Sequence record: PX441839.1
Length of the DNA: 64,000 nucleotides
Origin: a phage
Strand: one strand, 5' to 3'
The notes under the pieces are model-generated. The model was given only the letters and a program-made list of their open reading frames with translations, had not been told where the DNA came from and did no database searches. This document shows, piece after piece, positions 3,826-63,786 of the stretch (position 1 is its first letter; the number at the start of each line of letters is the position of its first letter). The position numbers and the translations under genes are program-made.

Positions 3826-3848
3826 ACCGCCCTTCGGGGCGGTTTTCT
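3826..3848 (+). terminator. rho-independent terminator
   Basis: ACCGCCC-TTCG-GGGCGGT hairpin followed by a T-run. Confidence 0.6.
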
Positions 3849-3870: not shown

Positions 3871-4545
3871 ATGGCAAAGCTTAAGGGTATTACTGGAAAT
3901 CAAAATGGGGTATTCTATGGTTATGCCCTCTATGATTTAAAATCTGAGAAGCTTATTCCTTTTAATGAGATTGGGGTAGGAGGCGGAGAAGCAGAGCAAG
4001 GTCCGGTAGGTCCTGTTGGACCACAAGGACCTAAAGGTGACAAAGGTGATCCTGGACCTCAAGGTTTGAGAGGTCCTCAAGGTCCTCAGGGACCTAAAGG
4101 TGATCCTGGCGCAAAGGGTGATGAAGGGATCGATGGTGCTGTTGGACCACAAGGTCCAAAAGGGGATAGGGGAGAACCAGGACCAGAAGGACCACAAGGT
4201 CCAATCGGACCCCGTGGACCAGTGGGACCTGCGGGAGCGACGGGTCTTAACTGGAAGGGACAGTATTCTGACTCTGTTACTTATCTTCTTGACGACGCTG
4301 TCGCGTTTAATGGTGCAACCTACTTTTCTGTCAAGGAGTCAACAGGGATAAGCCCAGCGGAAGATACAGTTCAAGAATACTGGGCTGTAATGGCAGCTTC
4401 TGGGGTAAAGGGAGACCAAGGTCCACAAGGTCCCGTGGGACCAGTGGGTCCTCAAGGTGAAAGAGGTGAACAGGGTATTCAAGGACCGAGAGGTCCAGTT
4501 GGAGAGACAGGACCTGCTGGACCTCGCGGACCGGAAGGGATTTAG
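3871..4545 (+). CDS. collagen-like repeat protein (ends at in-frame TAG)
   Basis: 224 aa with several Gly-X-Y tracts and a globular insert ([24 protein letters not shown]...). The stop is TAG at 4543-4545 and the same frame continues as collagen-like sequence. Confidence 0.6.
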
Positions 4546-4860
4546 GGACCACAGGGACCTCAAGGTATTCAGGGTCCTCAAGGTAAAAAGGGAGTTAATT
4601 GGAGGGGGAACTGGTTTAGAAACACCACATACACGAAAGATGACGCTGTTTATTTTGAAGGTACGAGTTGGATTTGCGATATAGACCATTCCTCGTCAGA
4701 TGACAATAAACCGGGAAGCCCTCAAAGATTTAAGTGGGCAGTTTTCGCCAAGAAAGGGGAAGACGGTCCTCAAGGACCTGCGGGAGAGCCAAAGAAAATC
4801 AACCATGTACTTCGGAATTGCTCCTGGAAATGGGGTGACATCATTCCTTGGACTTCCTAA
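4546..4860 (+). other. collagen-like reading frame continuing after the TAG, no start codon of its own
   Basis: Same frame as 3871..4545 encodes GPQGPQGIQGPQGKKG, a second copy of the NW.G....TY..DDAV.F.G module, and GEDGPQGPAGEP, then a TAA stop at 4858-4860. Confidence 0.4.
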
Positions 4861-5203
4861 TTCACCTACCCTTATGTTGGCGATACGGGGATTGGCGGAT
4901 AAGAATATTTCCGTAGGGCTTGTCTCTGGCGGTGCAGACAAGAGAGTTTCTTACAGATTTAGCTCTTTGTATGGTGGAGGTGGTGTTGATGGTCAATTTA
5001 ACCAATCTTACAACTTAACAAATGGTCTTCCTTTTATGGTTGACACACTCTATTACATGGACTCTCAAGAGAACCAAGTGATACTTATAAGTGATCTTGA
5101 AACTGGACAGGTATGGAGAGCGGATATGTGGGGAATAAACAGAAGATATTTTGTCGAGGTCTTTGAATTGACCGATGGCCCACAAGAGTACAAAATATAT
5201 TGA
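4805..5203 (+). CDS. hypothetical protein (possibly a C-terminal domain joined to the collagen-like gene by a frame change)
   Basis: +1-frame ORF from ATG 4805 (MYFGIAPGNG...); no convincing RBS; overlaps the end of the collagen-like frame. Confidence 0.35.
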   Translation: MYFGIAPGNGVTSFLGLPNSPTLMLAIRGLADKNISVGLVSGGADKRVSYRFSSLYGGGGVDGQFNQSYNLTNGLPFMVDTLYYMDSQENQVILISDLETGQVWRADMWGINRRYFVEVFELTDGPQEYKIY

Positions 5204-5208
5204 TAACT

Positions 5209-5236
5209 AGCCACCTTCGGGTGGCTTTATTTTTTA
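5209..5236 (+). terminator. rho-independent terminator
   Basis: AGCCACC-TTCG-GGTGGCT hairpin followed by TTTATTTTTT. Confidence 0.6.
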
Positions 5237-5264
5237 TGACTTTCGTAACGATATGTGGTAATAT
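5236..5264 (+). promoter_or_regulatory. putative sigma70/sigmaA-type promoter with extended -10 (TGgTAATAT)
   Basis: TGnTAATAT about 25 nt upstream of the RBS of the 5290 gene; weak -35 (ATGACT). Confidence 0.4.
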
Positions 5265-5289
5265 GTAATCTAACAATAATGGAGGTTAT

Positions 5290-5820
5290 ATGACCAACGA
5301 AGAACTGATTGAACTGGTCAGGGCTTTCCTCGGCAACGCTGATTCAGAAACCCTGCCTGATAACATAATCCTTCTGTTTTACAATAAGTGGGGGTTGTCT
5401 ATGGATCTAGACAATCACCCAGAAAGATTTCCAAACGTGCTATACAATACGGTTGTAGACTGCGTAAGATGGTTAATTGCTCAAGAGGTTTCAAGTGGTG
5501 CATCCTCAATAACTGAGCGATTTGAAAAGATAGGTGATGAAACTATCTCTGTGAAGGGAGGTTCATCCTGGAAATCGTGGCAAGACTTCCTTGAATGGCT
5601 TCTTCTGAACCCTGATTACATAGATCCCTCATTGGCTATGAACTCCTCGCTGGTGATCATAGGTGGTGTAAGAAAGGACAGATTCATGTCTGTTAAGAAC
5701 AACCCCAATTCTTATAATGGGTTTATGGAACAGGGGGTTTTCCCTACTCCAGCGATACCGAAGAAGGCTAAATGGCCCGGAGGCGGTGGAGGTTATCGCA
5801 GTAGCCCGTGGCTTCGATAA
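5290..5820 (+). CDS. hypothetical virion protein (possible head-tail adaptor)
   Basis: 176 aa; GGAGG RBS; N-terminus (EELIELVRAFLG...) loosely resembles gp6-like connector proteins; sits between fiber genes and the tail genes. Confidence 0.5.
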   Translation: MTNEELIELVRAFLGNADSETLPDNIILLFYNKWGLSMDLDNHPERFPNVLYNTVVDCVRWLIAQEVSSGASSITERFEKIGDETISVKGGSSWKSWQDFLEWLLLNPDYIDPSLAMNSSLVIIGGVRKDRFMSVKNNPNSYNGFMEQGVFPTPAIPKKAKWPGGGGGYRSSPWLR

Positions 5821-5833
5821 ATAATTGACTTTG

Positions 5834-5862
5834 TTGATTTTGCAAAGCTATTGTGGTAAAAT
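5834..5862 (+). promoter_or_regulatory. putative promoter TTGATT-17-TGgTAAAAT
   Basis: Near-consensus -35 TTGATT, 17-nt spacer, TG-extended -10 TAAAAT about 20 nt upstream of the GTG start at 5883. Confidence 0.5.
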
Positions 5863-5882
5863 AACTTTCATGAGGTAATTCT

Positions 5883-6344
5883 GTGGGTTATAAGTCCAAA
5901 CAAGACCTTTCTGAAATGGAAAGATACTTCGGGCAACTCACTGATTTGGCGGACAAAGAGGTTGAGTATGGCTTTTATGATGAGCAACATTACTCGGGCC
6001 TGAATATGGCAACTCTTGCCGCCATCCATGAGTATGGGTGGAATAAGCTTCCCGAACGTAACTTTATATATTCAACATCTATCCATTACAAGCAAGGATT
6101 GCAGAAGCATATAAGGAATATGCACACTGCAATTATCCAAGGGAAGTCTTTTGACAGTCACCTGAACAAGATTGGAAAGGATGGTGCCGACAGCATCAGA
6201 ATGACTATCCAACAAGGAGGATTTTCCAATCCTAAGGTATCAAAAGACTGGGCGCGTGTAAAAGGATTCGATGACGCAATGATTCACTATGGAGATTTGG
6301 CTTCCGCAGCAACTTACAAGGTTGTCAAATACCAAGGTAAATAA
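5883..6344 (+). CDS. hypothetical protein (connector/neck region)
   Basis: 153 aa; GTG start with GAGG 8 nt upstream. Confidence 0.55.
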   Translation: MGYKSKQDLSEMERYFGQLTDLADKEVEYGFYDEQHYSGLNMATLAAIHEYGWNKLPERNFIYSTSIHYKQGLQKHIRNMHTAIIQGKSFDSHLNKIGKDGADSIRMTIQQGGFSNPKVSKDWARVKGFDDAMIHYGDLASAATYKVVKYQGK

Positions 6345-7376: not shown

Positions 7377-7381
7377 TCCGG

Positions 7382-7430
7382 TTATTGATAGGCATTGCTT
7401 ATCAGTGACAAATCAAGGGGCTTCGGCCCC
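7382..7430 (+). promoter_or_regulatory. inverted repeat plus GC hairpin upstream of the sheath gene
   Basis: TTGATAGGcattgCTTATCAg imperfect palindrome, then GGGGC-TTCG-GCCCC hairpin with no following T-tract. Confidence 0.3.
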
Positions 7431-7479
7431 ATATTGGCACAGAAGTGCTTAGTCAATAATCGTTCAAGTAGAGGACAAC

Positions 7480-10197: not shown

Positions 10198-10203
10198 AAC
10201 ATA

Positions 10204-10236
10204 GGCCACGGTCGAAAGACCCTGGCCTTTTTCTTT
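10204..10236 (+). terminator. terminator-like hairpin between chaperone and tape measure genes
   Basis: GGCCAcGGTC-GAAA-GACCcTGGCC imperfect hairpin followed by TTTTTCTTTTT. Confidence 0.4.
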
Positions 10237-12726: not shown

Positions 12727-12729
12727 CAA

Positions 12730-12751
12730 GGGGGCTTCGGCCCCCTTTTTT
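12730..12751 (+). terminator. rho-independent terminator
   Basis: GGGGGC-TTCG-GCCCCC hairpin followed by TTTTTT. Confidence 0.7.
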
Positions 12752-12759
12752 ATTGGTCG

Positions 12760-12776
12760 GCTTCATGGTAAAATAC
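12760..12776 (+). promoter_or_regulatory. putative extended -10 promoter element (TGgTAAAAT)
   Basis: Same TGnTAAAAT motif as at 5854-5862, about 20 nt upstream of the 12794 gene. Confidence 0.35.
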
Positions 12777-12793
12777 CACAATAGGAGGGTATT

Positions 12794-13675
12794 ATGCAAC
12801 CAGGAACTTACAAGATGGGGACTTATTCTCCAGAGCAGATTGCTGCTATTGACAAGGCTTACAAAGAGGGTCAGGCAGAGGAAGCAAGAAAGAAGCAAGC
12901 TGTTGACGTACAGAAATCCAAAGAGGGTGTCAGGTACACAATATTTGCATCGGGATTAAGGAATGGACGGTTCAGTGAGCTAGAGGGGAAGAACTCTACC
13001 ACAGATATCGCAATTATTTTCGACGCTGTTGAAAACCACACCTACGGAAAGTCTTACAATAAGACAAGTTATGCAGTAGAATCCAGAGTAAAGGCTTCTG
13101 ATCATGTGGTAACTCAGGATGGGACTTTCTCTTTTACGGGAAGGATAACTTCCAGCCCATATTTCATTGATAACCGTAATATAATTGATGTGGATACGGA
13201 TTGGGAACACCCAATGGAGGCCAAGAGGCCAGAAAAGGCCCTTGAAATACTTCAAAGGGTTGCCGACTCTCATCAACTTATTTCCTTGGTCACTGAGGAT
13301 AATATTTTATCTGGCTATGTGATAACAAGGTTCACAGTAACAAGAACAACAAGCGAAGGTGCAGCCATTGTTGTCAGTGTGGAACTTGAAGAGTTTAGAT
13401 TTAAGCAGGTTGGGAGAACTGTTCTTGCCAGAACCGCAGATCCTAAGAAGGCAGGAAATAAAAACTCAGGATCTAAACAGACAGCCGCAGGTGGTGCTGC
13501 TGACGATGCAGCAAAAGGAAAAAGGCAATCACCTTACTTAGGTGGTTCAAGGGAAGCCTATGAGTACATGGAGAATAAGGGATTTGGCACAACAGACTTC
13601 TCGGGCAAAGCTGGGGCACAAATAAAACCAACCGTTAAGTTTGACCCAGCTTCCCTTCAAAGACCGGGGGCATAA
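12794..13675 (+). CDS. hypothetical tail/baseplate protein
   Basis: 293 aa, first gene after the tape measure; AGGAGGG RBS. Confidence 0.55.
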   Translation: MQPGTYKMGTYSPEQIAAIDKAYKEGQAEEARKKQAVDVQKSKEGVRYTIFASGLRNGRFSELEGKNSTTDIAIIFDAVENHTYGKSYNKTSYAVESRVKASDHVVTQDGTFSFTGRITSSPYFIDNRNIIDVDTDWEHPMEAKRPEKALEILQRVADSHQLISLVTEDNILSGYVITRFTVTRTTSEGAAIVVSVELEEFRFKQVGRTVLARTADPKKAGNKNSGSKQTAAGGAADDAAKGKRQSPYLGGSREAYEYMENKGFGTTDFSGKAGAQIKPTVKFDPASLQRPGA

Positions 13676-15666: not shown

Positions 15667-16191
15667 GTGGCTACAAATTTCGTCGATTTTGCTCTGGACC
15701 CTTTGACAGGGGATCTTGATTTCTCAGGACAGGCTATCAACCTAATTGAGTCCAATCAGTTGTCCCTGAGGCAGAGGCTGTACCTCAGGTTTGCGGTATG
15801 GGCAGGAGATTGGTGGTTTGATGAAACTTTCGGATTTCCATATAGAGCCTTTATTTCGAAAAAGACCATCAAATCAGTTCTTGACGGCAGAATAAAATCT
15901 GAGGTGAGAATGGAACCTGATGTCATGGAGATATCTGAGTTCCGGTCTGAGATGGACGTTGTCAACAGGACATATCAATGTTTCTTCACTGTCGTTACCC
16001 AAGAAGGTATTGAGGTGAATATGGCCTTTATGGGCCAAGACAACTTCGAATACCCAACACCTCCAGAAAGTAACGTATCTCTGTGTGGTGATGAGGGAGT
16101 TGTAATCCAGTTCAAGAATAAACTGTACTACTTAATAAACTTCCGTTTACCATCCTATGGTGATGCCACTTGGGTAAATACTTGGAAATAA
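15667..16191 (+). CDS. putative baseplate protein (gpW/gp25-like)
   Basis: 174 aa; GTG start with AAGGAG 6 nt upstream; N-terminal FALD...GDLDFSGQ resembles small baseplate wedge proteins (from memory). Confidence 0.5.
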   Translation: MATNFVDFALDPLTGDLDFSGQAINLIESNQLSLRQRLYLRFAVWAGDWWFDETFGFPYRAFISKKTIKSVLDGRIKSEVRMEPDVMEISEFRSEMDVVNRTYQCFFTVVTQEGIEVNMAFMGQDNFEYPTPPESNVSLCGDEGVVIQFKNKLYYLINFRLPSYGDATWVNTWK

Positions 16192-16198
16192 TAATAAA

Positions 16199-16224
16199 GG
16201 GAGCTTCGGCTCCCTTTTCTTTTA
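16199..16224 (+). terminator. rho-independent terminator
   Basis: GGGAGC-TTCG-GCTCCC hairpin followed by TTTTCTTTT. Confidence 0.7.
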
Positions 16225-16225
16225 A

Positions 16226-16250
16226 TTCGTATCTGAATATGATAAAATAC
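16226..16250 (+). promoter_or_regulatory. putative extended -10 promoter element (TGaTAAAAT)
   Basis: TGnTAAAAT motif between the terminator and the 16286 gene. Confidence 0.4.
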
Positions 16251-16285
16251 GACTATCGCCTAATTTAGGAGCACAGGAGGAGACT

Positions 16286-17773
16286 ATGGCTTCCAATTAC
16301 GGCTTGACAAGCAGCGGATTCAACCTCCCGGCTCTTGATGACCTGACGGAGGAAACCAAGAAGGCTTTCCGCCAGGCTTTCGGAGAAAACTTCAATACCG
16401 GAAGTAACTCAGTTGCTGACAAGCTGATCTACATTCTCAACGAGAGAGAATATCAACTTTATCTTTTAATGGCCTCTGTTTATTCTGCTCAAACAATGCA
16501 GGGTGCCGAGGGAATCTATCTTGACGATTTGCTGGGTAAAAGAGGTATTTACCGCTTAGGCAAAACAAGAAGTACCGGGACAGCAGTTCTTACTGTTGAC
16601 GCTTCCGTTCCCTACAATATGATCTATAACGCTTCCAGTTACAGCATTGACGGTGGAAACTACGAACTGGCAACTGATGTTCAAGTAGCAGGGAACATCA
16701 TAGCACAGGTGATCAGAGGAACTGATCTGGTTGTTGGTAATTATAGATTAACAATTCAAAACGTCAATGATCAATCTCAAAGGACAGTGACCCACAACCT
16801 CACCGCAACGAGCGGTGCCCCTCTGACAGTTTTCTTTAACGTCATAAAAGATTTCATTGTCACAAACACCATTTTGTCCAACCAAGACCGAATTGTCATT
16901 GATTCGGTAGAGGGTGCCATCTACATTGGATACAACACCAGCAAGGAGATGATTGGACTTTCAAGCCGTGTTGATTTCAGAACATCACCGCTGGCAGGGA
17001 ATAAGACAATCCTTATTGATGTAAGATCGGTAGAGCCAGGTGCAATATCACGAGAGGCACACAGTATTAGGTCGATCTCTCCAACCCCTAGTGGTTTTGT
17101 TGCTATAGATAACCTGAGTGCATTTACCGATGGTTCAGACGTAGAGTCAGATAACGAGTACAAGCTTCGTGGGGCCATGTCCGTTAACTCAGGGAAGGCA
17201 ACCCGACCTGCTATCCTCTCTGCCCTTTTGAACGGAGTGGAAGGGATAGAGAAGGTTCGCATATTCAACAACAATACGGATAAGACTAACGCACTAGGTA
17301 TCCCACCTTATCGCTTTCAGGTTGTTGTTTATGGTGGCACAACAGAACAGATCAGTCAAGTCCTTTATGATACGATAGCGGCATCTAATAATACCTTTGG
17401 TACAACTTTCCACGACATCACTACAGAGGATGACCAGGTGGAAAGAATATGGCACACAAAGGCATCAGAAAGAAGGTTAGCTATTCGAGTACGCTACAGA
17501 GGACGACCGTTGTCTATGACTGAGGAGACAGCCATTGCAAACGGGTTGGTCACGATAGTTAACGGATCTAATATCGCAGACACGATCTACAACGTTCAGT
17601 TGGTAGGTACAGTAATGAGTTCCACAACACCGGGTAGATTCACCCAAGTGTTTGTAGATATTAAGAATAAAGGGGCACCTGATTCGGAATTTGTAAACTC
17701 TGACATAACAGCAGGTGTTACCGAGGTATTCAACCTTGAACCGGAAGATGTCCAGTTCAGCCAAGTTGTGTAA
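16286..17773 (+). CDS. putative baseplate J-like protein
   Basis: 495 aa; GGAGGAG RBS; size and position after the gpW-like gene match the P2/PBSX-type order. Confidence 0.6.
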   Translation: MASNYGLTSSGFNLPALDDLTEETKKAFRQAFGENFNTGSNSVADKLIYILNEREYQLYLLMASVYSAQTMQGAEGIYLDDLLGKRGIYRLGKTRSTGTAVLTVDASVPYNMIYNASSYSIDGGNYELATDVQVAGNIIAQVIRGTDLVVGNYRLTIQNVNDQSQRTVTHNLTATSGAPLTVFFNVIKDFIVTNTILSNQDRIVIDSVEGAIYIGYNTSKEMIGLSSRVDFRTSPLAGNKTILIDVRSVEPGAISREAHSIRSISPTPSGFVAIDNLSAFTDGSDVESDNEYKLRGAMSVNSGKATRPAILSALLNGVEGIEKVRIFNNNTDKTNALGIPPYRFQVVVYGGTTEQISQVLYDTIAASNNTFGTTFHDITTEDDQVERIWHTKASERRLAIRVRYRGRPLSMTEETAIANGLVTIVNGSNIADTIYNVQLVGTVMSSTTPGRFTQVFVDIKNKGAPDSEFVNSDITAGVTEVFNLEPEDVQFSQVV

Positions 17774-20494: not shown

Positions 20495-20833
20495 ATGATT
20501 CTTGATATAATGGCAGTTCTTAAAGCACTCTGGGGATTTGCCACTTTTATTTTGTTGGGGATTCTCAAAATTACGTATTCTGACTTCAAAAAGATGCAGG
20601 AACGTCAGGACACTCTTGAGAAAGATATTATCCGACTCAGGAGTGAGATGGTTACTAAGGACAGTCTTGATGATATTTTTGATCGGAAGATGAAACATAT
20701 TCAAGACACTATCCAGGATATACGTGGGGATCTCGCAGACATGCGAGGAGAAACAAAGGACGAGGTTACTGCCTTACGTAATGAAATCAGGACTGTTTTG
20801 AATGTAGTTTTGGAGAGAAGCAACAGACAATGA
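20495..20833 (+). CDS. small membrane protein with coiled-coil
   Basis: 112 aa; N-terminal hydrophobic helix (LKALWGFATFILLGILKI) then charged helical region. Confidence 0.5.
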   Translation: MILDIMAVLKALWGFATFILLGILKITYSDFKKMQERQDTLEKDIIRLRSEMVTKDSLDDIFDRKMKHIQDTIQDIRGDLADMRGETKDEVTALRNEIRTVLNVVLERSNRQ

Positions 20834-25071: not shown

Positions 25072-25101
25072 AATAGCCCCTACTAAGGGGCTATTTTACT
25101 T
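25072..25101 (+). terminator. rho-independent terminator
   Basis: TAGCCCCT-acta-AGGGGCTA hairpin followed by TTTTACTTTT. Confidence 0.65.
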
Positions 25102-28889: not shown

Positions 28890-28925
28890 AGGCCGGAACA
28901 ACATATTATCACAAATACTTAGATT
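28890..28925 (-). promoter_or_regulatory. putative promoter (TTGCAA ... TGaTAATAT) for the 27659..28858 gene
   Basis: Minus-strand TTGCAA, about 16-nt spacer, TG-extended TAATAT upstream of the AAGGAG RBS. Confidence 0.35.
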
Positions 28926-28931
28926 TGCAAC

Positions 28932-37883: not shown

Positions 37884-38088
37884 CTTGAATCCCTAATCGC
37901 TCCTGCGGGGTAGCTTCTTTGAAGCCTTCCCCCATCATTTTACGAAGTTGATACTGAGTCATTGCAGATTTAATGGTCTCTTCGTAACACTCGATTTCAA
38001 CTGTAAACTTGACGATTTTCTTATCAGTCATGTTGGCCCCCTTTGTGCTTCGATGGGTGTATATTACCAGCTTTGATCTTGAAGTCAA
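37849..38088 (-). CDS. hypothetical protein
   Basis: 79-aa ORF. Confidence 0.45.
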   Translation of the reverse strand: MTSRSKLVIYTHRSTKGANMTDKKIVKFTVEIECYEETIKSAMTQYQLRKMMGEGFKEATPQERLGIQVAKAYMERKVV

Positions 38089-43269: not shown

Positions 43270-43806
43270 TCAAGTATATATAAACTCCCCTGTAAAGTTT
43301 ACATCCGTGTATATTCCACGAAACGGAGATACAATCTTCATCAACCCGCTTACAGGGTCTAAGTACACAAAATTAGTAACCGTATATCCTAAGTAACTGG
43401 AGTAAGAGTTACTGGTGTGGTTATTCCTTGAAACCGAAATATATTGATTATAAGTAACAGTTACTGTTTTCGTTATAAGGACGGTAGAATTAGTCCGCAG
43501 CAGGGCTTGGTACGTACCATACGAAGGTGAGGCATGTTGCGCTACCAGATACCACCAAGAGTCGTAAGTTACCGAAGTTCCGTATGGGCTTCCCCACATC
43601 CTCCCGTCTGTTGAGTACACTTTCCCGACATCATACGCCATAGTTTGGGCCGGAGCAGTGACCTCGGGTATCCAAGACCCTGCCGCCTGATTGTCAGGGA
43701 TACGGAGTATTCCCCTTTGTTGGTCTAGCCATTTTAGAAACACAGGATAGGTCATGGGGCCCTCGATTGGGGCGGATGCCCCTGATACCGACAGTAACTC
43801 AAGCAT
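43270..43806 (-). CDS. hypothetical protein with the shared N-terminal leader
   Basis: Start at internal ATG (MLELLSVSGASAP) with GGAGAG RBS; the longer track ORF would run through the upstream terminator. Confidence 0.5.
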   Translation of the reverse strand: MLELLSVSGASAPIEGPMTYPVFLKWLDQQRGILRIPDNQAAGSWIPEVTAPAQTMAYDVGKVYSTDGRMWGSPYGTSVTYDSWWYLVAQHASPSYGTYQALLRTNSTVLITKTVTVTYNQYISVSRNNHTSNSYSSYLGYTVTNFVYLDPVSGLMKIVSPFRGIYTDVNFTGEFIYT

Positions 43807-43847: not shown

Positions 43848-43862
43848 CTTTGTACAGAGGGT

Positions 43863-43895
43863 ATTTTAACACGGACGCTTTGAATTATCCACAAG
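43863..43895 (-). promoter_or_regulatory. putative extended -10 promoter (TGtTAAAAT) for the leader cassette
   Basis: Minus-strand TGTTAAAAT just upstream of the terminator hairpin and the 43806 gene; -35 is weak. Confidence 0.3.
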
Positions 43896-43928: not shown

Positions 43929-44228
43929 TCAGTGACATTGCCCCCAATTAAGTCCTGTCAGATACTCACCTGTGATATGTACAGGTGCCTTCATCATCTT
44001 AGCTGCTTGTTCAACGCAACGAACAACCATTTCACCGACAGGGCAGTAGATGATAGTGAATATTCCATTCTCATCGGGGTCGCACTTAAACTTACCTTCC
44101 TTGACACAATGACCATCCAGAACCATACGCTTCTTGAGGCAATCCTCAACAAAAGCTTTTGCTTCGACTTCATTGTCAAACTTCCATTCCTTCTTGAACT
44201 TATTTGGAACTTCAAGCTGGTATTCATC
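43929..44228 (-). CDS. DNA polymerase family A, exon 2 (C-terminal end)
   Basis: Begins at DEYQLEVP (second half of the Pol A motif C, HDE...E.P) and ends ...TGLNWGQCH, like the Pol I C-terminus; the leading Met of the track ORF is probably intron-derived. Confidence 0.6.
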   Translation of the reverse strand, partial: DEYQLEVPNKFKKEWKFDNEVEAKAFVEDCLKKRMVLDGHCVKEGKFKCDPDENGIFTIIYCPVGEMVVRCVEQAAKMMKAPVHITGEYLTGLNWGQCH

Positions 44229-44998
44229 CAAAGTTTAGCAGGTTCGTTAATCCTGCCCACACCATTACGTGTTGCCATACGGTTTCCCGTAGGATCGGAC
44301 TATATCACCACCCTTTTCAGGGTGCTCCCCATTTCGACGCCACTTGGTCGCCTACGCCTCTCGGCTAGTCTCTGAACGTTAAGACCACGTATACTTCTCG
44401 GAAATATGCTTCCACTGCCGACGCTGCTTAATGGCTCGTACTGTTGCATAGGGGAATCCCATGTCGCGTACCTCTGCCTGGCTCATTCCGCTTTCAAGAA
44501 GCTGGCAAATGGTCATCACTTCGTCTTCTGTGAGGGCACTATTAGCATTGTTGATACCTTCCGCGCTGCGACAGTTGTGGCGATAGGCGTTCTCTATGTT
44601 TTTGCCTCTCGTAACCCACTGTAGGTTGTCTTTGTGGTTATTCCTTTTATCGGGCCACTTGTGATCAACCTCTGGAAGATTGTTCGGATTGGGAACAAAA
44701 CATTCTGCCACCAAAACATGGACCGCCTTTGTCGTCGCCTTTTTGTTAAGGTAAAGACTGACAATTGCATACCCTCTTCCATTATCAACATGCTTCATAG
44801 GTTTACCTCGACGACCTATAATGGTCCCGTCCTCGTAAACTTTATATCCGAAATAGTCTTTGTACTCCACGTAGTCCTCTTCGCTGCTGATTAACATAGC
44901 TGCACTTTAGTTTATTATTAACCCAGTGTCAACCTTAGCCTTCCAGCAATTAAAGGAGTTTTCGATGTAGGTTGCCCTACAAAGCCACAATGTTACTT
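44229..44998 (-). mobile_element. group I-like intron in the DNA polymerase gene, carrying an HNH homing endonuclease ORF
   Basis: About 770 nt separate the exon 1 end (...VRRIIYYH) from exon 2 (DEYQLEVP), splitting motif C. It contains an HNH ORF and an 80-nt core conserved with the second intron. Boundaries approximate. Confidence 0.55.
44379..44897 (-). CDS. HNH homing endonuclease
   Basis: 172 aa; HVLVAECFVPNPNNLPEVDHKWPDKRNNHKDNLQWVTRGKN is an HNH-type motif; lies between the polymerase fragments. Confidence 0.75.
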   Translation of the reverse strand: MLISSEEDYVEYKDYFGYKVYEDGTIIGRRGKPMKHVDNGRGYAIVSLYLNKKATTKAVHVLVAECFVPNPNNLPEVDHKWPDKRNNHKDNLQWVTRGKNIENAYRHNCRSAEGINNANSALTEDEVMTICQLLESGMSQAEVRDMGFPYATVRAIKQRRQWKHISEKYTWS

Positions 44999-47326
44999 AT
45001 GGTAATAGATAATACGACGAACTCCCTCGTCATACCATCCCTTCTTGACCAGTTGCCAGTGAAGCAAGATTCCAACCAGGTCAAATAGTGCTGCACCACC
45101 ATTCTGCTGAAATGCGTTCAACAGGGAGTGCTTTGAACGAGTCCAAATCTTACGCCCATCCAAACCATAGATGAATCTTTTCCCTGTCGCTTCCCAGAAT
45201 TTCTCCAGCGCTTCTTTACGACCTTTTAATCCGATGTTGCTATCCCAGAATGCGTTGATTACATCCTGTGCCTTATCTACTGTGATTCCAAGCATGGATG
45301 CAATCTTGGGTGCCTGAGCGCCGTACATGATTCCATACGTGATACTCTTTCCCTCGCCACGAGAAACCTTCTTCCCCGCTGCCTTTGTGTATGCCTCTGC
45401 GTTTCGGGTGTGGGCGTCCCCCGACTCCATGATTTCAAGGTAAGCGCCACCATCGAACTCATACGCACCCCAAGCCGCAATCATACCTTCCAGGTTAGAA
45501 CCATCAATACCCACTTGGTACTTACCCTTTGGTGCTCGCCAAAGGGAACGCATCTCATAACCAAACAACACCTTCGGATCAGGCTTAGGCATGTTTGCGC
45601 AGATCGTGTGCTTACGACGCCCAGTGTTGGTAATCCCTGAGAACCTTGCTGGTAATCGACCATCAATCTTCAAGCGTGGGTGGTTAAGAAGTCCAGTATC
45701 AACCTTATCCTCTTTCAGTGGATCAAGGACAGATCGTCGGTTACGTGCAGATAACCACTGAACAATGCCTTTAGCCATCGCACCATCCACCTTTTCCAAG
45801 TTTGGGCACAATCCCTGCTGGTCTTTCAACTGAGGGCTTGTTGGCAATGCACGGGCCTTCTTACGGAAGAATTTGAACATCTTCTCCTTGTCTGCCCACT
45901 GCTTAGGGGTAATGTGCAAGTTCTTAAGGATAAGATCACGATATTCTGTCTGATCTAGTTGCTCAATATACTCCCGCACAATTGCATCAACTTCACCATC
46001 CGGACGTTGCTTTTTAAACTGGTCCTTTGTTGCATCCTTTGTACGCCAAATTGTTGGAATCCAACCCGCATCTCGGATGAGGAACTTCTTAACATCATCC
46101 TGGTTACCGATACGCATCGGAATCATTATATCTGGCATGGTCTTATTCTTCAAGTCCGCCAAAGCCCGTGCCATATCCTCTGGAGGTAGTGGCTCCAGTG
46201 TGGATTGTTTTTCGTTCTGACTACGAATGAACTGAGGCATTTGATCCTCATCTTCCACCCCGTGGTCATTACAGTATTTAATAGCCGCAGCCGTAAGTGA
46301 ACCATCTGCCTTAAATGCTTTAGCCGGAGGCCCCTTGAAATCAAGGGCTTCCCAATTAATATTGTATCCTAACTTCTCCAGCCATTTCCAACCTGTGCCG
46401 GACAATGTCCCGTCACCCTTGAAAGGTTTGGATGGGAAAGTTGGTTGTGCGGATTTAGCCATCTCTTTCTTCGGAAGCTGAGGCTCAACCTCTTCCTCAA
46501 TCTTCTTCATGAAGGCATCAACCGTATCGCGGAGTTTCAGCGCCGCCTCTATGTCAAAATCAACACCTTGGATTTCTTGCTCAATCATCAGGTAATCGGT
46601 AAGCATACCTCGACGAAGAGAGTCTTTCCAGTTGATCATTTTATATTTTGTTGGGACACGCTCATCTTTAAACATGAAGCGTTTATCATCTGGGTACGCA
46701 TCGCAGGTGATTTCCTTCATAAGGGCGTCCCACACCTTTTCGTTGATGATAACGTCCTCAATGATACGGTCACAATACTTCCACAACGGGAGTCCACGCC
46801 AATCATCAATGGCGACTTTCAGGTTGGCTACTCTCATACCCCATGCTTCCAGACCATGAGGGCCAACAGGTTTCATCTTTCCTGTGACAGGGTTTTTAAC
46901 CATTTCTGGGCAACCCTTCGGCAATGGGCGGTCAGGGTAGAGTGTACGAGACATAGACAAGGAGTCAAACAGGTTAACCTGTTTTCCATTGATCGTTCCC
47001 ATGCACTTAGGATCGGCAAACATATCGTATTGTGTACCGAACAGCTTCTTGAACAGACGTAAGTCATATCCAAACAAGTTGTGAATAACAATGCTACTAG
47101 GGACTTCTGTGAACCATCTATTAAGGTCAGAGAAGTTCATTACATGCAGATTGAATCCCTTCGCATTAACGAAGTTCAAAGCCTCTTGATAACCCTCTCG
47201 CGCTGGGTCCATGAAGAGATACCAGTTATCCTTTTTGTACTCCTTGAAGAGGATGCAGTGAGCATGTAAGTTCTCCTCGTCAAGTAAACCAGATGCTTCC
47301 GCATCACCTACCCATAAACCTTTCAT
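44999..47326 (-). CDS. DNA polymerase family A, exon 1 (3-5 exonuclease and polymerase domains through the start of motif C)
   Basis: Motif A-like DGSNLEGM (D.S..E), motif B-like KSITYGIMYGA (K...YG..YG), N-terminal exonuclease-like region; ORF ends abruptly at ...VRRIIYYH-K-stop inside motif C. Confidence 0.8.
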
Positions 47327-51214: not shown

Positions 51215-51700
51215 TTAGAAAGGTGGTTGGTCATCCCAATCACTGTCGTCTTCCACAACCTCAGGTGTGACTTTAGATTCTTCCGGTTTGGAATCCTCTT
51301 TAATCTCCATCTGCTGTGGTTCAATGTCATCTTCATCATCAGGGATATCGTCTTCCTTGAGATCAGATAGACCTTTCTCCGAGTTCTCTTGTGATAATGG
51401 CTGCATTTTACCAACAGCCTTCTCAACATAATGTTCAGAACTTGGATCATCTTCTGGATGAATCGCATACCACTCTCGAAGAGTTTCATATGGACTGTCC
51501 AAGAAGCCTTCTGGCGGTTCTAAGTAATCACCTGTGTCAATATCATAGAACACAGGGAACTTCCCGCTACGCCCGTGCTTACGGTCATCTAGAATTACAA
51601 ACCAAGAGGTATTTCGCTCTTTCATTGGCAACTCTGGATCTTTGTTACGCTCAATACCCACCATAAAATAAGTGTTCTTTTTGTCCAGTGGGTTCGCTAC
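51215..51700 (-). CDS. primase-helicase, exon 2 (helicase C-terminus with acidic tail)
   Basis: FMVGIERN ... GRSGKFPVFYDIDTGDYLE and acidic C-terminus ending DWDDQPPF resemble the T7 gp4 C-terminal region (from memory); exon start approximate. Confidence 0.55.
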   Translation of the reverse strand, partial: VANPLDKKNTYFMVGIERNKDPELPMKERNTSWFVILDDRKHGRSGKFPVFYDIDTGDYLEPPEGFLDSPYETLREWYAIHPEDDPSSEHYVEKAVGKMQPLSQENSEKGLSDLKEDDIPDDEDDIEPQQMEIKEDSKPEESKVTPEVVEDDSDWDDQPPF

Positions 51701-52532
51701 TCCCACCCGGTGCGATTCCTGGCACCCGCCTACACTTTCGTGCAGGAACAGACTATATCATCACCTTTCGGTGCTCTCCGCTTCGGGACCGCTTGGCCCT
51801 AACGCCTTTCGGCTAGTCGTTGAGGTTTTTGCACGTTCTGGGTACATCTTCCAAGAATACAAGTCCCCGACCTCTTTCCAATCCCTTCGGGAGCGGATAT
51901 TGAGGACTGCTGACCTTGTTACAGGTAATCCACTATTATCGACAATCTTCTGCGCTGACCAACCCTCAGAAAGAAGCCTACAAATTTTGTGAACCTCTGC
52001 CTCTGTGACTTTGGACCTGTAATGATCCTCTCCCCTCTTTGGAAGCTTATTGGCAATAGAGTGCTCAAGATTTTGCCTACCAGTGACCCATTCCAGGTCA
52101 TCTTTGTGGTTAAATTCCTTGCCTCTTTTATGATTAACTTCGGGTAAGTTCAGCGGGTTTGGAATATAAGTCTTAGCTACCAACCTGTGAACATACTCGG
52201 GCGTTCTCTTACCTTTAAGTATCACATTGACAAAATAATACCCTGTACTCTTGTTTCGAATGTTCTTCAAAAATTTATTTGTGAACAAACTAAATACCTT
52301 GCCATCTTCTGTTACAAGATATTTACTACCCTCTTCTATTGGTATCATGTTTCCCCCTTCTTTATTCTAACAAAAGGGTATAATACACAAAAGAATTTGA
52401 ATATGCAACTTACCTGCTGATTACCCAATCCTCTGTCTTTTCAAACATTCACGCCCACCCTTACGGGTCACGTTGTAGTGCCAGAGGCTCTAAGGGCTTC
52501 CCAGCAATTCAAAGAGTTTTACATGCGCTAAA
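51701..52532 (-). mobile_element. group I-like intron in the primase-helicase gene, carrying an HNH homing endonuclease ORF
   Basis: Separates helicase motif H4 (...GSRAMMR) from its continuation; contains an HNH ORF and a core segment homologous to 44300-44380. Confidence 0.55.
51761..52348 (-). CDS. HNH homing endonuclease
   Basis: HRLVAKTYIPNPLNLPEVNHKRGKEFNHKDDLEWVTGRQN, paralogous to the 44379 HNH; the C-terminal tail of the track ORF probably reads through intron RNA core. Confidence 0.65.
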   Translation of the reverse strand: MIPIEEGSKYLVTEDGKVFSLFTNKFLKNIRNKSTGYYFVNVILKGKRTPEYVHRLVAKTYIPNPLNLPEVNHKRGKEFNHKDDLEWVTGRQNLEHSIANKLPKRGEDHYRSKVTEAEVHKICRLLSEGWSAQKIVDNSGLPVTRSAVLNIRSRRDWKEVGDLYSWKMYPERAKTSTTSRKALGPSGPEAESTER

Positions 52533-54071
52533 TCAACGCATCATCGCACGAGAACCTGCAAACTGTGCCGACTGAACCTGACCACCAAATTCATGGGGTT
52601 TTCCAGATTCCGGTTTGTTCAAGTGACAGAAACAATAATATGTGAAACCTAAGTCCTTTGCAAGGATAGAGATCTCATCTGAAAATCGTTCCAGTTCTGT
52701 GTTAGCATCACCTGGTGACATACCTTGCACAAGTCGAGTAATTGGGTCGATAATAATATCTTCACAACCCTCCACCAAGACTGCGTGGCGGATTGCACCC
52801 TTCACCTCGTCCCATACTGCACGACCATAGTTGGAATAATAAATGATCTTATCGCCAACATAATCTGTAGCTTGGATTAGTTCTTCATGCTTGAAGTATC
52901 CACGTTGTCCTTCAAAGATTTCGTTACCCCAAACATCTCGGTAAGTCCCATCTTCCTGAGGGATCATTACCTTTTCTGCGTTAATGAAGTCCTTGTGGTA
53001 AATTTTACCTGCAACCTTCTTACAAGTGATGTCGTTCTCTTCTTCAAACTTAAAGATACCGACTTTCTTCTTGTCTTTTTCAATGATGTGCTCGACAAGT
53101 TGGTTAACAAACTCGGACTTACCGATCTTAACACCTGCACCAAGGAAGTATCCCTCTCCTTTACGACGACCCAGTGTCAACTTGGTCATGGTAGGCCAAG
53201 GCCATGATTTACCAAGTTTTGGAATCTCGTGCGCTTTGTCTCGAAATTGTGCATACGTAGAGAAACCTTCTGGTACATAGTCCTTTGGCTTCATTGCTGC
53301 CCAGAATAATTGGTCAGCCATTCCCTTGATGTACATGTCGCATGGGTCCATGTCCTCTGGGATGTCAACAACCTTCATCTGAGGAATTACTGAGTAAACC
53401 GCTGCAACAGCATCCTTACCTTTCATAATCCCCTTGGCCTTTTCTGCCTCCGTTGCACGATCAGCATCAAAAGCTACAATAATCTCTTCAAACTTGTTCA
53501 GAAGCTTGTAGTTGTTCTTCTGAGCTAGGTTCTGCACGGCATTAGATGTGCCGTTGGAAATTGAGACCACCGTGAAGTTTGGTTTACGTGCATTTCCATC
53601 CTTAGATTTATACTTTTCTCGGAGAACCTGCCACAACACTGCCGCATCGTACTCGCCCTCCGTGATAAAAATCATGCGACGTGAGGATTTATTTGCACCC
53701 TCCAGACCAAACAGGTCACAAGCGACAGATTGGAAACCAATCGTACTAAAGTGGCCCTTCTGTTGCTTAGGAATGGTCAGATCTCGCTTCTTAAAGCCGA
53801 CGATCTTACCCTCCAGTGTGTAGGGAAAATAGTGCGCCTCTGGTGTCATCCCATCCTTGGCAGACAGCTTAGTCCTGATTCCAAAGCGCTCTGCCGTCTT
53901 CTGATCGATACCTCGCTCAGGGATGGCTTTAAATGGGTAAGTTTTTACATCTTCTACTGTTTCTTCAACCTTGTTCATACGACCACCCCCTACTGAACGA
54001 GATACCGATGCCTTCGGGTTCTTGTACCCCGTCTTATAACCACCAAACAGACCTTCACCTAATGTGCTCAC
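52533..54071 (-). CDS. primase-helicase (T7 gp4-like), exon 1
   Basis: GTG start with AAGGAG RBS; TOPRIM-like ITEGEYDA; helicase Walker A GAGVKIGKSEF; DIIIDPITRL; ends within the H4-like region. Confidence 0.75.
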   Translation of the reverse strand: MSTLGEGLFGGYKTGYKNPKASVSRSVGGGRMNKVEETVEDVKTYPFKAIPERGIDQKTAERFGIRTKLSAKDGMTPEAHYFPYTLEGKIVGFKKRDLTIPKQQKGHFSTIGFQSVACDLFGLEGANKSSRRMIFITEGEYDAAVLWQVLREKYKSKDGNARKPNFTVVSISNGTSNAVQNLAQKNNYKLLNKFEEIIVAFDADRATEAEKAKGIMKGKDAVAAVYSVIPQMKVVDIPEDMDPCDMYIKGMADQLFWAAMKPKDYVPEGFSTYAQFRDKAHEIPKLGKSWPWPTMTKLTLGRRKGEGYFLGAGVKIGKSEFVNQLVEHIIEKDKKKVGIFKFEEENDITCKKVAGKIYHKDFINAEKVMIPQEDGTYRDVWGNEIFEGQRGYFKHEELIQATDYVGDKIIYYSNYGRAVWDEVKGAIRHAVLVEGCEDIIIDPITRLVQGMSPGDANTELERFSDEISILAKDLGFTYYCFCHLNKPESGKPHEFGGQVQSAQFAGSRAMMR

Positions 54072-62779: not shown

Positions 62780-63786
62780 TTCTTTCCTCGCTTCTTAAGT
62801 TTGTTGTGTCCATTACCACGGCGAATCTTCACCTGTTTCCAATCTTTTACTGGCTTTTCCACCTCGGCAATAGCGGAAAATTCATCAATGATATTTTTGC
62901 CAATTGGTTTACCAGCCTCCAGCAGTGCAACTTTATTGTATTTGGACATAAGGGTTTTTACCTTCTCAGAATCTAAAATTTCAACATTAGACAGATCCAT
63001 GTCCTCTTTCCTCGCACCATACATTGTTTGGTACATTGCCGTCTTTAATGCAGTTTTTGTCCCAAAGTAAATTTCAACCTTGTACTCAGAAGCCAGCCTA
63101 ATCAACCTCTTCATTACAGAGTCTATATTGTTAATTGAGGATGCACAACCCGGTACTGACTCTACAAAAATAGGTGTCATGGGCCAACCTGTGTACTCAA
63201 CAGTTGCTTTTGTTCTTTCCAGCATACACTCTAACCTTGTAAATTCATCTGGGTCTTCGACAAGGTCCGTAATTTTGAAAATAACAGGATGCTTGGTGGG
63301 AATATCCTGCATACATAGCTTCTCCAGTTCTTCCCAATCAACGCCGCTCTCCATGTCTAAATACAAATCACCATCCTTTGGGATCGACAATGTCTTTCCA
63401 GATGGGGATGTATTAGGGAGATAATTATAGTTAAGCCGACCAGTTGGTCTACCGTCCCGTTTTTTAATGAAGTCAGCGTAGAGTTTATCACCATCCTCTA
63501 ACACCTCATCAAACCAGACAAAACTGTTTACACCCAACTGATCGGTATCAGAAGTGAACTCAGATCCGGGGGTAGCGATAGCCCTTACATTTTTCAAATG
63601 ATCACGAAAGAAAGGATCTGGAATAAAGAATTCCCTGCTTAGAAACATTCTTGATTTATTCTCATCTTCGTGGGTTGAGATGAGGGATTCTTCAAAATCA
63701 TGACCTTTGGATTTGTAATTCATAAGTTTTAATTCCTTGTTTTGTTTTGATAAGGGGATATTACTCCCCTTTCTGACTCGTGTCAA
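62776..63786 (-). CDS. hypothetical protein
   Basis: 336-aa ORF; no family recognised. Confidence 0.5.
   Translation of the reverse strand: MTRVRKGSNIPLSKQNKELKLMNYKSKGHDFEESLISTHEDENKSRMFLSREFFIPDPFFRDHLKNVRAIATPGSEFTSDTDQLGVNSFVWFDEVLEDGDKLYADFIKKRDGRPTGRLNYNYLPNTSPSGKTLSIPKDGDLYLDMESGVDWEELEKLCMQDIPTKHPVIFKITDLVEDPDEFTRLECMLERTKATVEYTGWPMTPIFVESVPGCASSINNIDSVMKRLIRLASEYKVEIYFGTKTALKTAMYQTMYGARKEDMDLSNVEILDSEKVKTLMSKYNKVALLEAGKPIGKNIIDEFSAIAEVEKPVKDWKQVKIRRGNGHNKLKKRGKK

Follow-up and report, generated by a model that had tools for sequence, protein, structure and literature searches.

Conserved extended −10 elements resembling sigma-70 promoters in the structural gene module of a Vequintavirinae phage

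A MEME search of late-gene upstream regions in phage rV5 yielded eight copies of the motif TggTAaAAtA, which its authors named a putative late promoter, akin to the T4 late consensus TATAAATA (Kropinski et al. 2013, Virol J 10:76; PMC3606486). The published site list (Table S4, with late promoters in S4C) includes P056 and P048. Homologues of gp33, gp45 and gp55 were reported to be absent from rV5, and an Srd-like protein, gp11, was suggested as an anti-sigma switch (PMC3606486). The sigma-70 consensus, for its part, consists of TTGACA at −35, trTGn from −17 to −13, and TATAAT at −10, with a pyrimidine at −17 and a purine at −16 making up the weaker part of the trTGn consensus (PMC2613000). 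Extended −10 promoters form a class that is independent of sigma region 4, and the middle and late promoters of Thermus phage P23-45 belong to this class (PMC3950348). A search of the literature library used here found no start-site or transcriptome study for Vequintavirinae, and a full-text search with the motif string returned unrelated papers only.

We analyzed a contiguous stretch of 64,000 nucleotides (PX441839.1; hereafter the window) from the ∼140-kb genome of a Vequintavirinae (rV5/CR3-like) myophage. Over a 10-kb stretch around the interval 5834–5862, the window matches Salmonella phage SSBI34 (Vequintavirinae) at 86.6% identity and Certrevirus-like phages of Cronobacter, Enterobacter and Pectobacterium at ∼73%. 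Its genes fall into two blocks:

1–27,613, plus strand: structural module, containing genes for collagen-like fibre, Neck1, sheath, tube, tape measure, tube initiator, baseplate and tail fibres
27,659–64,000, minus strand: small genes without known function plus replication and lysis genes, those named being DNA polymerase, primase/helicase, Dda-like helicase, RNA ligase, methyltransferase and endolysin

The syntenic region was compared in eight relatives, namely SSBI34, CarlMeissner (Vequintavirus), CR9 and phiTE (Certrevirus), A7_1, BIS47 (Mydovirus), SSE121 (Seunavirus) and JohannJBalmer (Stephanstirmvirinae).

A preliminary description of the window had listed five 9-mers of the TGnTAAAAT type as promoter elements. 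Read directly from the sequence, all five are present: TGGTAATAT at 5256–5264, TGGTAAAAT at 5854–5862 and again at 12766–12774, and TGATAAAAT at 16240–16248 on the plus strand, and TGTTAAAAT at 43863–43871 on the minus strand. The four plus-strand elements lie upstream of genes of the structural module, and their predicted arrangement is as follows:

5236–5264, plus strand: putative promoter with −35-like ATGACT (5236–5241), 17-nt spacer, and TGG + TAATAT (5256–5264); downstream gene 5290–5820 (phrog_2663); start predicted near 5271
5834–5862, plus strand: putative promoter with TTGATT (5834–5839) and TAAAAT (5857–5862), then A; downstream Neck1/tail-completion gene 5883–6344 (phrog_222); start predicted near 5869
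12766–12775, plus strand: putative promoter TGGTAAAATA, without recognisable −35 (best match 3/6); downstream tail tube initiator gene 12794–13675; start predicted near 12781, 2–3 nt before the AGGAGG RBS
16240–16249, plus strand: putative promoter TGATAAAATA, with a poor −35, TTTTAA; downstream baseplate wedge gene 16286–17773 (phrog_6); start predicted near 16255

At the 5854 site, as at 12766, the RBS would begin 2–3 nt after the predicted start.

These elements resemble the rV5 late promoters in consensus, in their location upstream of structural genes and in often lying right behind a terminator. Matches to the rV5 consensus in the window comprise two copies of TGGTAAAATA and one of TGATAAAATA, and TGGTAATATG is a variant. 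The element at 5854 is the orthologue of rV5 P056 (TTTGTGGTAAAATACATTAGTGAGG), a string that also precedes the Neck1 orthologue in CarlMeissner, and the element at 12766 is the positional orthologue of P048. More generally, CarlMeissner and other genera have elements at the corresponding places before their Neck1, tube initiator and baseplate wedge genes. The two phages are nonetheless distinct, with tube initiators of ∼42% protein identity and the window phage in a separate, Certrevirus-like lineage. As motif, location and orthologous sites are already published for rV5, what we describe is a new instance of a published motif, a sound but ordinary finding. The rV5 authors emphasized how closely the motif resembles T4 late promoters; the footprint described below, obtained by comparing relatives, points instead to a sigma-70 extended −10 architecture, and a footprint that looks sigma-70-like rather than T4-late-like is the addition made here.

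Abundance of the motif is by itself not significant. TGNTAWAAT occurs 9 times in the whole window versus 5.5 ± 2.3 times in shuffled sequences, and 11 of 100 shuffles reach 9; we therefore dropped over-representation as evidence and used a placement test instead. Of all position-strand slots, 3.1% are sense-strand non-coding DNA, and four of the five copies of TGNTAAAATA fall there, a significant bias (binomial P = 4.8e-6), with the caveat that intergenic DNA is richer in AT, raising the chance rate of such 9-mers. The TGNTAWAAT copies at 20503, 21312, 39123 (minus), 51405 (minus) and 59601 (minus) are within coding sequence or overlap start codons and were not taken to be promoters. A near-motif, TGGTAAAAC, at ∼10190, before the tape-measure terminator, was likewise set aside as a chance occurrence, since its TG is not kept in SSBI34, A7_1 and phiTE. 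Counting k-mers in 12 late upstream regions gave three signals and no others, namely TGGTAAAA/TAAAATA, the Shine-Dalgarno sequence and the terminator hairpin. The elements had been described as lying 20–30 nt from the RBS, which the measured gaps do not bear out: those to the Shine-Dalgarno sequence are ∼16, 9, 8, 18–28 and 46 nt, and those to the start codon are 25, 20, 19, 37 and 56 nt (sites 5256, 5854, 12766, 16240 and 43863 on the minus strand).

At the orthologous position, a TGnTAnnnT element is found in six phages for the 5256 site, eight for 5854, nine for 12766 and five for 16240. This gives 28 orthologous sites in four groups (window plus eight relatives), although the sites are homologous and hence amount to ∼4 independent promoters. 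Retention of the four plus-strand sites at orthologous positions across genera rules out chance. Because the initial site table was built with the search pattern TG.TA...T, five of its positions were set in advance, and we rechecked the pattern on the free positions and in unanchored MAFFT alignments. Position −17 is T in 20 sites and C in 7, position −16 is a purine in 27/27, and all four bases are seen at −13. Position −10 is A in 26/27 sites and T in none (0/27), A is found at −8 throughout (27/27), and −6 is A in 20/27. T-12, A-11 and T-7 are invariant among orthologues, with variation within groups at −9 and, rarely, at −10.

The TG lies one base before the hexamer at all five listed sites and forms an invariant column in the unanchored alignments. 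For the 5256 site (six phages), the invariant columns are ATGAC, within ATGACW, and TG.TAA.AT, and the 17-nt spacer between them has diverged and is not conserved. For the 5854 site, GTTGMTTTTG, 9 variable bases and TGTGGTAAAATA are kept in eight phages. The −35-like hexamers of these two sites (ATGACW and TTGMTT) thus stand at exactly 17 bp in every phage holding the site. The alignment for the 12766 site spans nine phages from seven lineages (five named genera and two unplaced Vequintavirinae) and two subfamilies; invariant here are the terminator stem, the T-tract and TT..TG.TA.AAT. The element at 16240 is kept in SSBI34, CR9, A7_1 and phiTE. At both 12766 and 16240, the terminator T-tract occupies the −35 position, where the best −35 match, 3/6, is at background level. 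The preliminary description had credited the 5834 copy alone with a good −35. TTGATT is indeed present there, 17 nt before TAAAAT with a spacer ending in TGTGG, but it is not the only one, as the 5256 site has ATGACT at exactly 17 bp, conserved in five related phages.

Two further features of the Neck1 upstream region were noted. TTGATT is preceded, 9 bp upstream, by another −35-like hexamer, TTGACT, which has TATTGT as its partner at a spacing of 18 bp (5825–5854, plus strand). The surrounding GTTGACTTTGTTGCTTTTG is kept in CR9 and phiTE, has GAGT for GACT in A7_1, and is not found in Mydovirus or Seunavirus; the TTGACT/TATTGT pair may be an overlapping alternative promoter. In T4 middle promoters, the consensus places the MotA box ∼12 nt from the −10. 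We considered and rejected TTGCTTTTG of the Neck1 promoter as a MotA box, since its spacing to the −10 is 15 nt and a single site is concerned.

Conserved and free positions of the elements are distributed as in E. coli sigma-70 extended −10 promoters: TG at −15/−14, a free −13, a pyrimidine at −17, a purine at −16, and T-12, A-11 and T-7. The −35 behaves alike as well: if partially present, it stands at 17 bp, and its absence is tolerated. Unlike the E. coli promoters, the phage elements nearly always have TAAAAT in place of TATAAT, and A is favoured at −6. This bias to A at −10 and −6 is not predicted by plain sigma-70 selection and counts against a plain sigma-70 reading. The motif is a lineage-specific variant, TAAAAT(A), never TATAAT, and the preliminary description was too firm in preferring host recognition to a phage-specific late promoter. 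Sigma-70-type recognition of the elements is well supported by the footprint, and the four plus-strand elements are probably functional promoters of the structural (late) gene module. Sequence, placement and conservation of the elements are shown here; sigma-70 dependence, start sites and promoter strength are inferred. Sigma region 3.0 would contact T-15 and G-14, and A-11 and T-7 of TAAAAT would be captured by sigma region 2. The promoters at 5236–5264 and 5834–5862 would also offer a partial −35 at 17 bp; those at 12766 and 16240, with a terminator T-tract in the −35 place, would have to depend on the TG motif. Transcription would start ∼7 nt past the hexamer, giving leaders of ∼13–30 nt.

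Three intrinsic terminators and four further hairpins bear on how these promoters might be used:

5209–5235, plus strand: intrinsic terminator, stem 5209–5226 with UUCG loop, T-tract to 5235; −12.7 kcal/mol, z = −4.4; adjoins the end of ORF 4700–5203
12728–12753, plus strand: intrinsic terminator, stem 12728–12747 with UUCG loop, T-tract; −16.0 kcal/mol; located after the tape-measure gene and kept in nine phages
16196–16225, plus strand: intrinsic terminator, stem 16196–16217 with UUCG loop, T-tract; −14.7 kcal/mol, z = −4.1; located after gene 15667–16191
2776–2791, 3826–3843, 10203–10227 and 25075–25093, plus strand: terminator-like hairpins without promoter, each with RBS and start codon within ∼20–27 nt

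The earlier proposal that each element lies directly behind a terminator holds at 5256, 12766 and 16240. It fails for the minus-strand element and at 5854, where there is no terminator upstream and the element directly follows the stop codon of gene 5290–5820. With three promoters directly behind intrinsic terminators, transcription stopped after one tail or baseplate operon would be restarted for the next. The broader idea that each late gene block is reinitiated in this way is borne out at these three junctions and not at the four hairpins that leave no promoter space. Read-through must feed the genes downstream of the latter (2776, 3826, 10203 and 25075), tape measure included, which implies leaky termination or antitermination; terminators of the module with no promoter behind them would have to be leaky. 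The result is a usable map of promoters and terminators for this new member of the Vequintavirinae, covering its tail and baseplate module.

On the minus strand, three candidates were considered:

43862–43871, minus strand: candidate element TGTTAAAATA, just after the last DNA polymerase exon, upstream of hairpin 43844–43825 and gene 43806–43270
28903–28930, minus strand: extra candidate, TTGCAA, 16 nt, TGATAATAT (TGA + TAATAT), then a hairpin; upstream of gene 28858–27659 (phrog_4477)
38061–38088, minus strand: extra candidate, TTGACT, 16 nt, TGGTAATAT (TGG + TAATAT); upstream of gene 38031–37849

The element at 43863 had been placed downstream of a terminator hairpin, but the hairpin actually lies between the element and the RBS, and a transcript from this element would meet it ∼12 nt downstream. 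Among the relatives, the element is conserved only in SSBI34, where the hairpin has a full T-tract and the TGnTAAAATA-hairpin-RBS cassette is followed by another gene; phiTE lacks the element. We regard it as a weaker promoter candidate. The other two candidates were absent from the preliminary list, and that at 38061–38088 has both a −35 and an extended −10. The gene at 43270–43806 (minus strand) encodes a 178-aa protein (phrog_6409) that has no homologue in other Vequintavirinae. Its matches, at 28–37% identity, come only from phages of Erwinia, Serratia, Proteus and Salmonella with genomes of 210–370 kb, mostly Erwinia jumbo phages.

A second style of promoter is seen in the minus-strand early/replication block. 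Intergenic sites of the form TTGACW-N16–18-TAnnnT occur on this strand at 63786, 60979, 57694, 51183, 44932, 38088, 37615 and 29368, and seven of the eight lack TG. They match the early promoter reported for Certrevirus phage CB7, given as AAAA-N3-TGTTGAC-N19-TATAAT in the text and AAAA-N4-TGTTGAC-N17-TATAAT in the Figure 7 legend (PMC7344957). Two promoter styles thus coexist in the window, TTGACW sites without TG in the minus-strand block and TGnTAAAAT sites in the late block, although both classes are defined by sequence patterns and the contrast between them is partly circular. In the rV5 tables, T is found at −10 in 0/8 late versus 15/22 other promoters (Fisher P = 0.002). We considered the same base, the third of the −10 hexamer, as a class contrast in the window, where it is unclear because the TTGACW class has A there in 5/8 sites.

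The likeness to TATAAATA seen by the rV5 authors raises the question of whether sigma-70 is involved at all: TGGTAAAATA could be a phage-specific late promoter, read by a phage sigma-like factor (an analogue of T4 gp55, with or without co-activators) that replaces sigma-70. T4 late promoters, too, are short A/T-rich −10-region elements before late genes, with the 3′ end AAATA in common, and the lineage-wide A at −10 and A at −6 exceed sigma-70 needs. However, only 5/8 positions of TATAAATA match. T4 late promoters need neither a TG motif nor a −35, and the TG, the purine at −16 and the pyrimidine at −17, signatures of sigma-70 region 3, are not characteristic of them; moreover, the −35-like hexamer kept at 17 bp by two of the sites would be of no use to a gp55-type factor. 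The window contains two exact copies of TATAAATA, both inside genes and none upstream of a gene, and a T4-type late promoter was rejected. In agreement with the rV5 report, PHROGs revealed no gp55-, gp33- or gp45-like protein among the window proteins scanned (64 kb of the ∼140-kb genome). Nor did PHROGs reveal a sigma, anti-sigma or transcription factor among nearly all minus-strand genes plus six plus-strand genes of the 64-kb window, and the RefSeq annotation of phiTE positions 1–50,000 has no such factor. Later work reportedly showed that T4 Srd stimulates RNase E, and the suggestion that the Srd-like gp11 of rV5 acts as an anti-sigma switch is doubtful. On balance, replacement of sigma-70 by a phage factor seems very unlikely. 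We give almost no credence to the view that the conserved blocks are not promoters at all and represent RNA-level signals (processing sites or 5′ UTR elements) or chance AT-rich strings. Such a view would fit the read-through that several late terminators need regardless, the AT-richness of intergenic DNA, and the minus-strand copy at 43863, which precedes a terminator-like hairpin and is conserved no further than SSBI34. Yet the spacing between element and RBS ranges from 8 to 46 nt among the listed elements, whereas that to the −35-like hexamer stays at 17 bp from genus to genus, a combination that argues for a DNA-level promoter rather than an RNA signal. The conserved and free positions fit the sigma-70 contact pattern, and chance is excluded by the placement statistics together with orthologous conservation.

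Recognition by sigma-70 leaves a question of timing, as nothing in the sequence explains late expression of the structural genes by an unmodified host polymerase at these sites. One refinement, compatible with host sigma-70 recognition, is that the extended −10 promoters form a dedicated late class dependent on a phage protein that remodels sigma region 4/β-flap, such that polymerase would move from TTGACA-type early promoters to TGn promoters. A switch like that of P23-45 gp39 or T4 AsiA, blocking −35 recognition but sparing TGn, would explain late timing: gp39 and AsiA spare extended −10 promoters (PMC3950348; PMC2613000), and in P23-45 structural or late genes likewise lie behind extended −10 promoters without −35, while early and host promoters are of the −10/−35 type (PMC3950348). 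The two promoter styles of the window, the lack of a −35 at two of the four late sites, and the TTGAC/TATAAT type of Certrevirus early promoters (PMC7344957) are consistent with this. Unlike in P23-45 and T4, half of the window sites keep a partial −35, and the temporal switch is hypothetical here. TTGACA is also found at rV5 P036, P051 and P074 and in JohannJBalmer; with a good −35 at some orthologous late sites, the late class is not uniformly without one. PHROGs detected no AsiA-, gp39- or anti-sigma-like protein among the window proteins scanned (64 kb of ∼140 kb), which is weak evidence, since proteins of the anti-sigma type are small and fast-evolving; most window proteins scanned are of unknown function. 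We consider such a dedicated class unlikely. A 1990 paper by Chan and Lebowitz reports, in its title, suppression of open-complex formation when the lacUV5 −10 region carries a dA4.dT4 tract; TAAAAT contains a tract of this type, which provides a lead only. It is conceivable, if rather doubtful, that Vequintavirinae have a late class TRTGn-TAAAAT-A whose A4 tract is poor for the unmodified host holoenzyme, with a small phage protein switching the polymerase. If true, a functional analogue of AsiA/gp39 would set late timing in enterobacterial rV5-like phages. For host sigma-70 recognition as such, the 2013 reading of a "T4-like late promoter" in rV5 is sharpened to a full sigma-70 extended −10 signature across several genera, with a −35 at 17 bp at some of the sites, and the question is narrowed to how late timing arises with host sigma-70, in a phage group widely used for therapy and biocontrol.

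Several other features of the window were recorded. The collagen-like fibre gene (region 3871–5203, plus strand) stops at an in-frame TAG (4543–4545), past which Gly-X-Y repeats run on in the same frame to ∼4870; ORF 4700–5203 is in another frame and has no PHROG match. This may reflect one gene that is disrupted or recoded, or else sequencing errors. Upstream of the tail sheath gene, 7377–7479 (plus strand) has no TGn promoter. It holds three conserved hairpins (GATAgGC/GCtTATC; GGGGCTTCGGCCCC, without T-tract; and GGCAC-loop-GTGCT, with varying loops) followed by a conserved GTCAATAATCGT block, all common to CR9, A7_1, phiTE and SSBI34 and partly to SSE121, and may represent a leader RNA structure or processing site.

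Two genes of the minus-strand block are interrupted. The primase/helicase gene (phrog_239; 51215–54071) is split into 52533–54071 and 51215–51706 by an HNH ORF (51761–52348), with no Rfam intron at gathering threshold at this split. In the DNA polymerase gene, a group I intron (44276–45008; Rfam RF00028, 54 bits) is flanked by 44993–47326 and 43929–44126 and carries another HNH endonuclease ORF (44379–44897). The promoter-like site at 44932, TTGACA-17-TAAAGT, is inside this intron, upstream of the HNH ORF.
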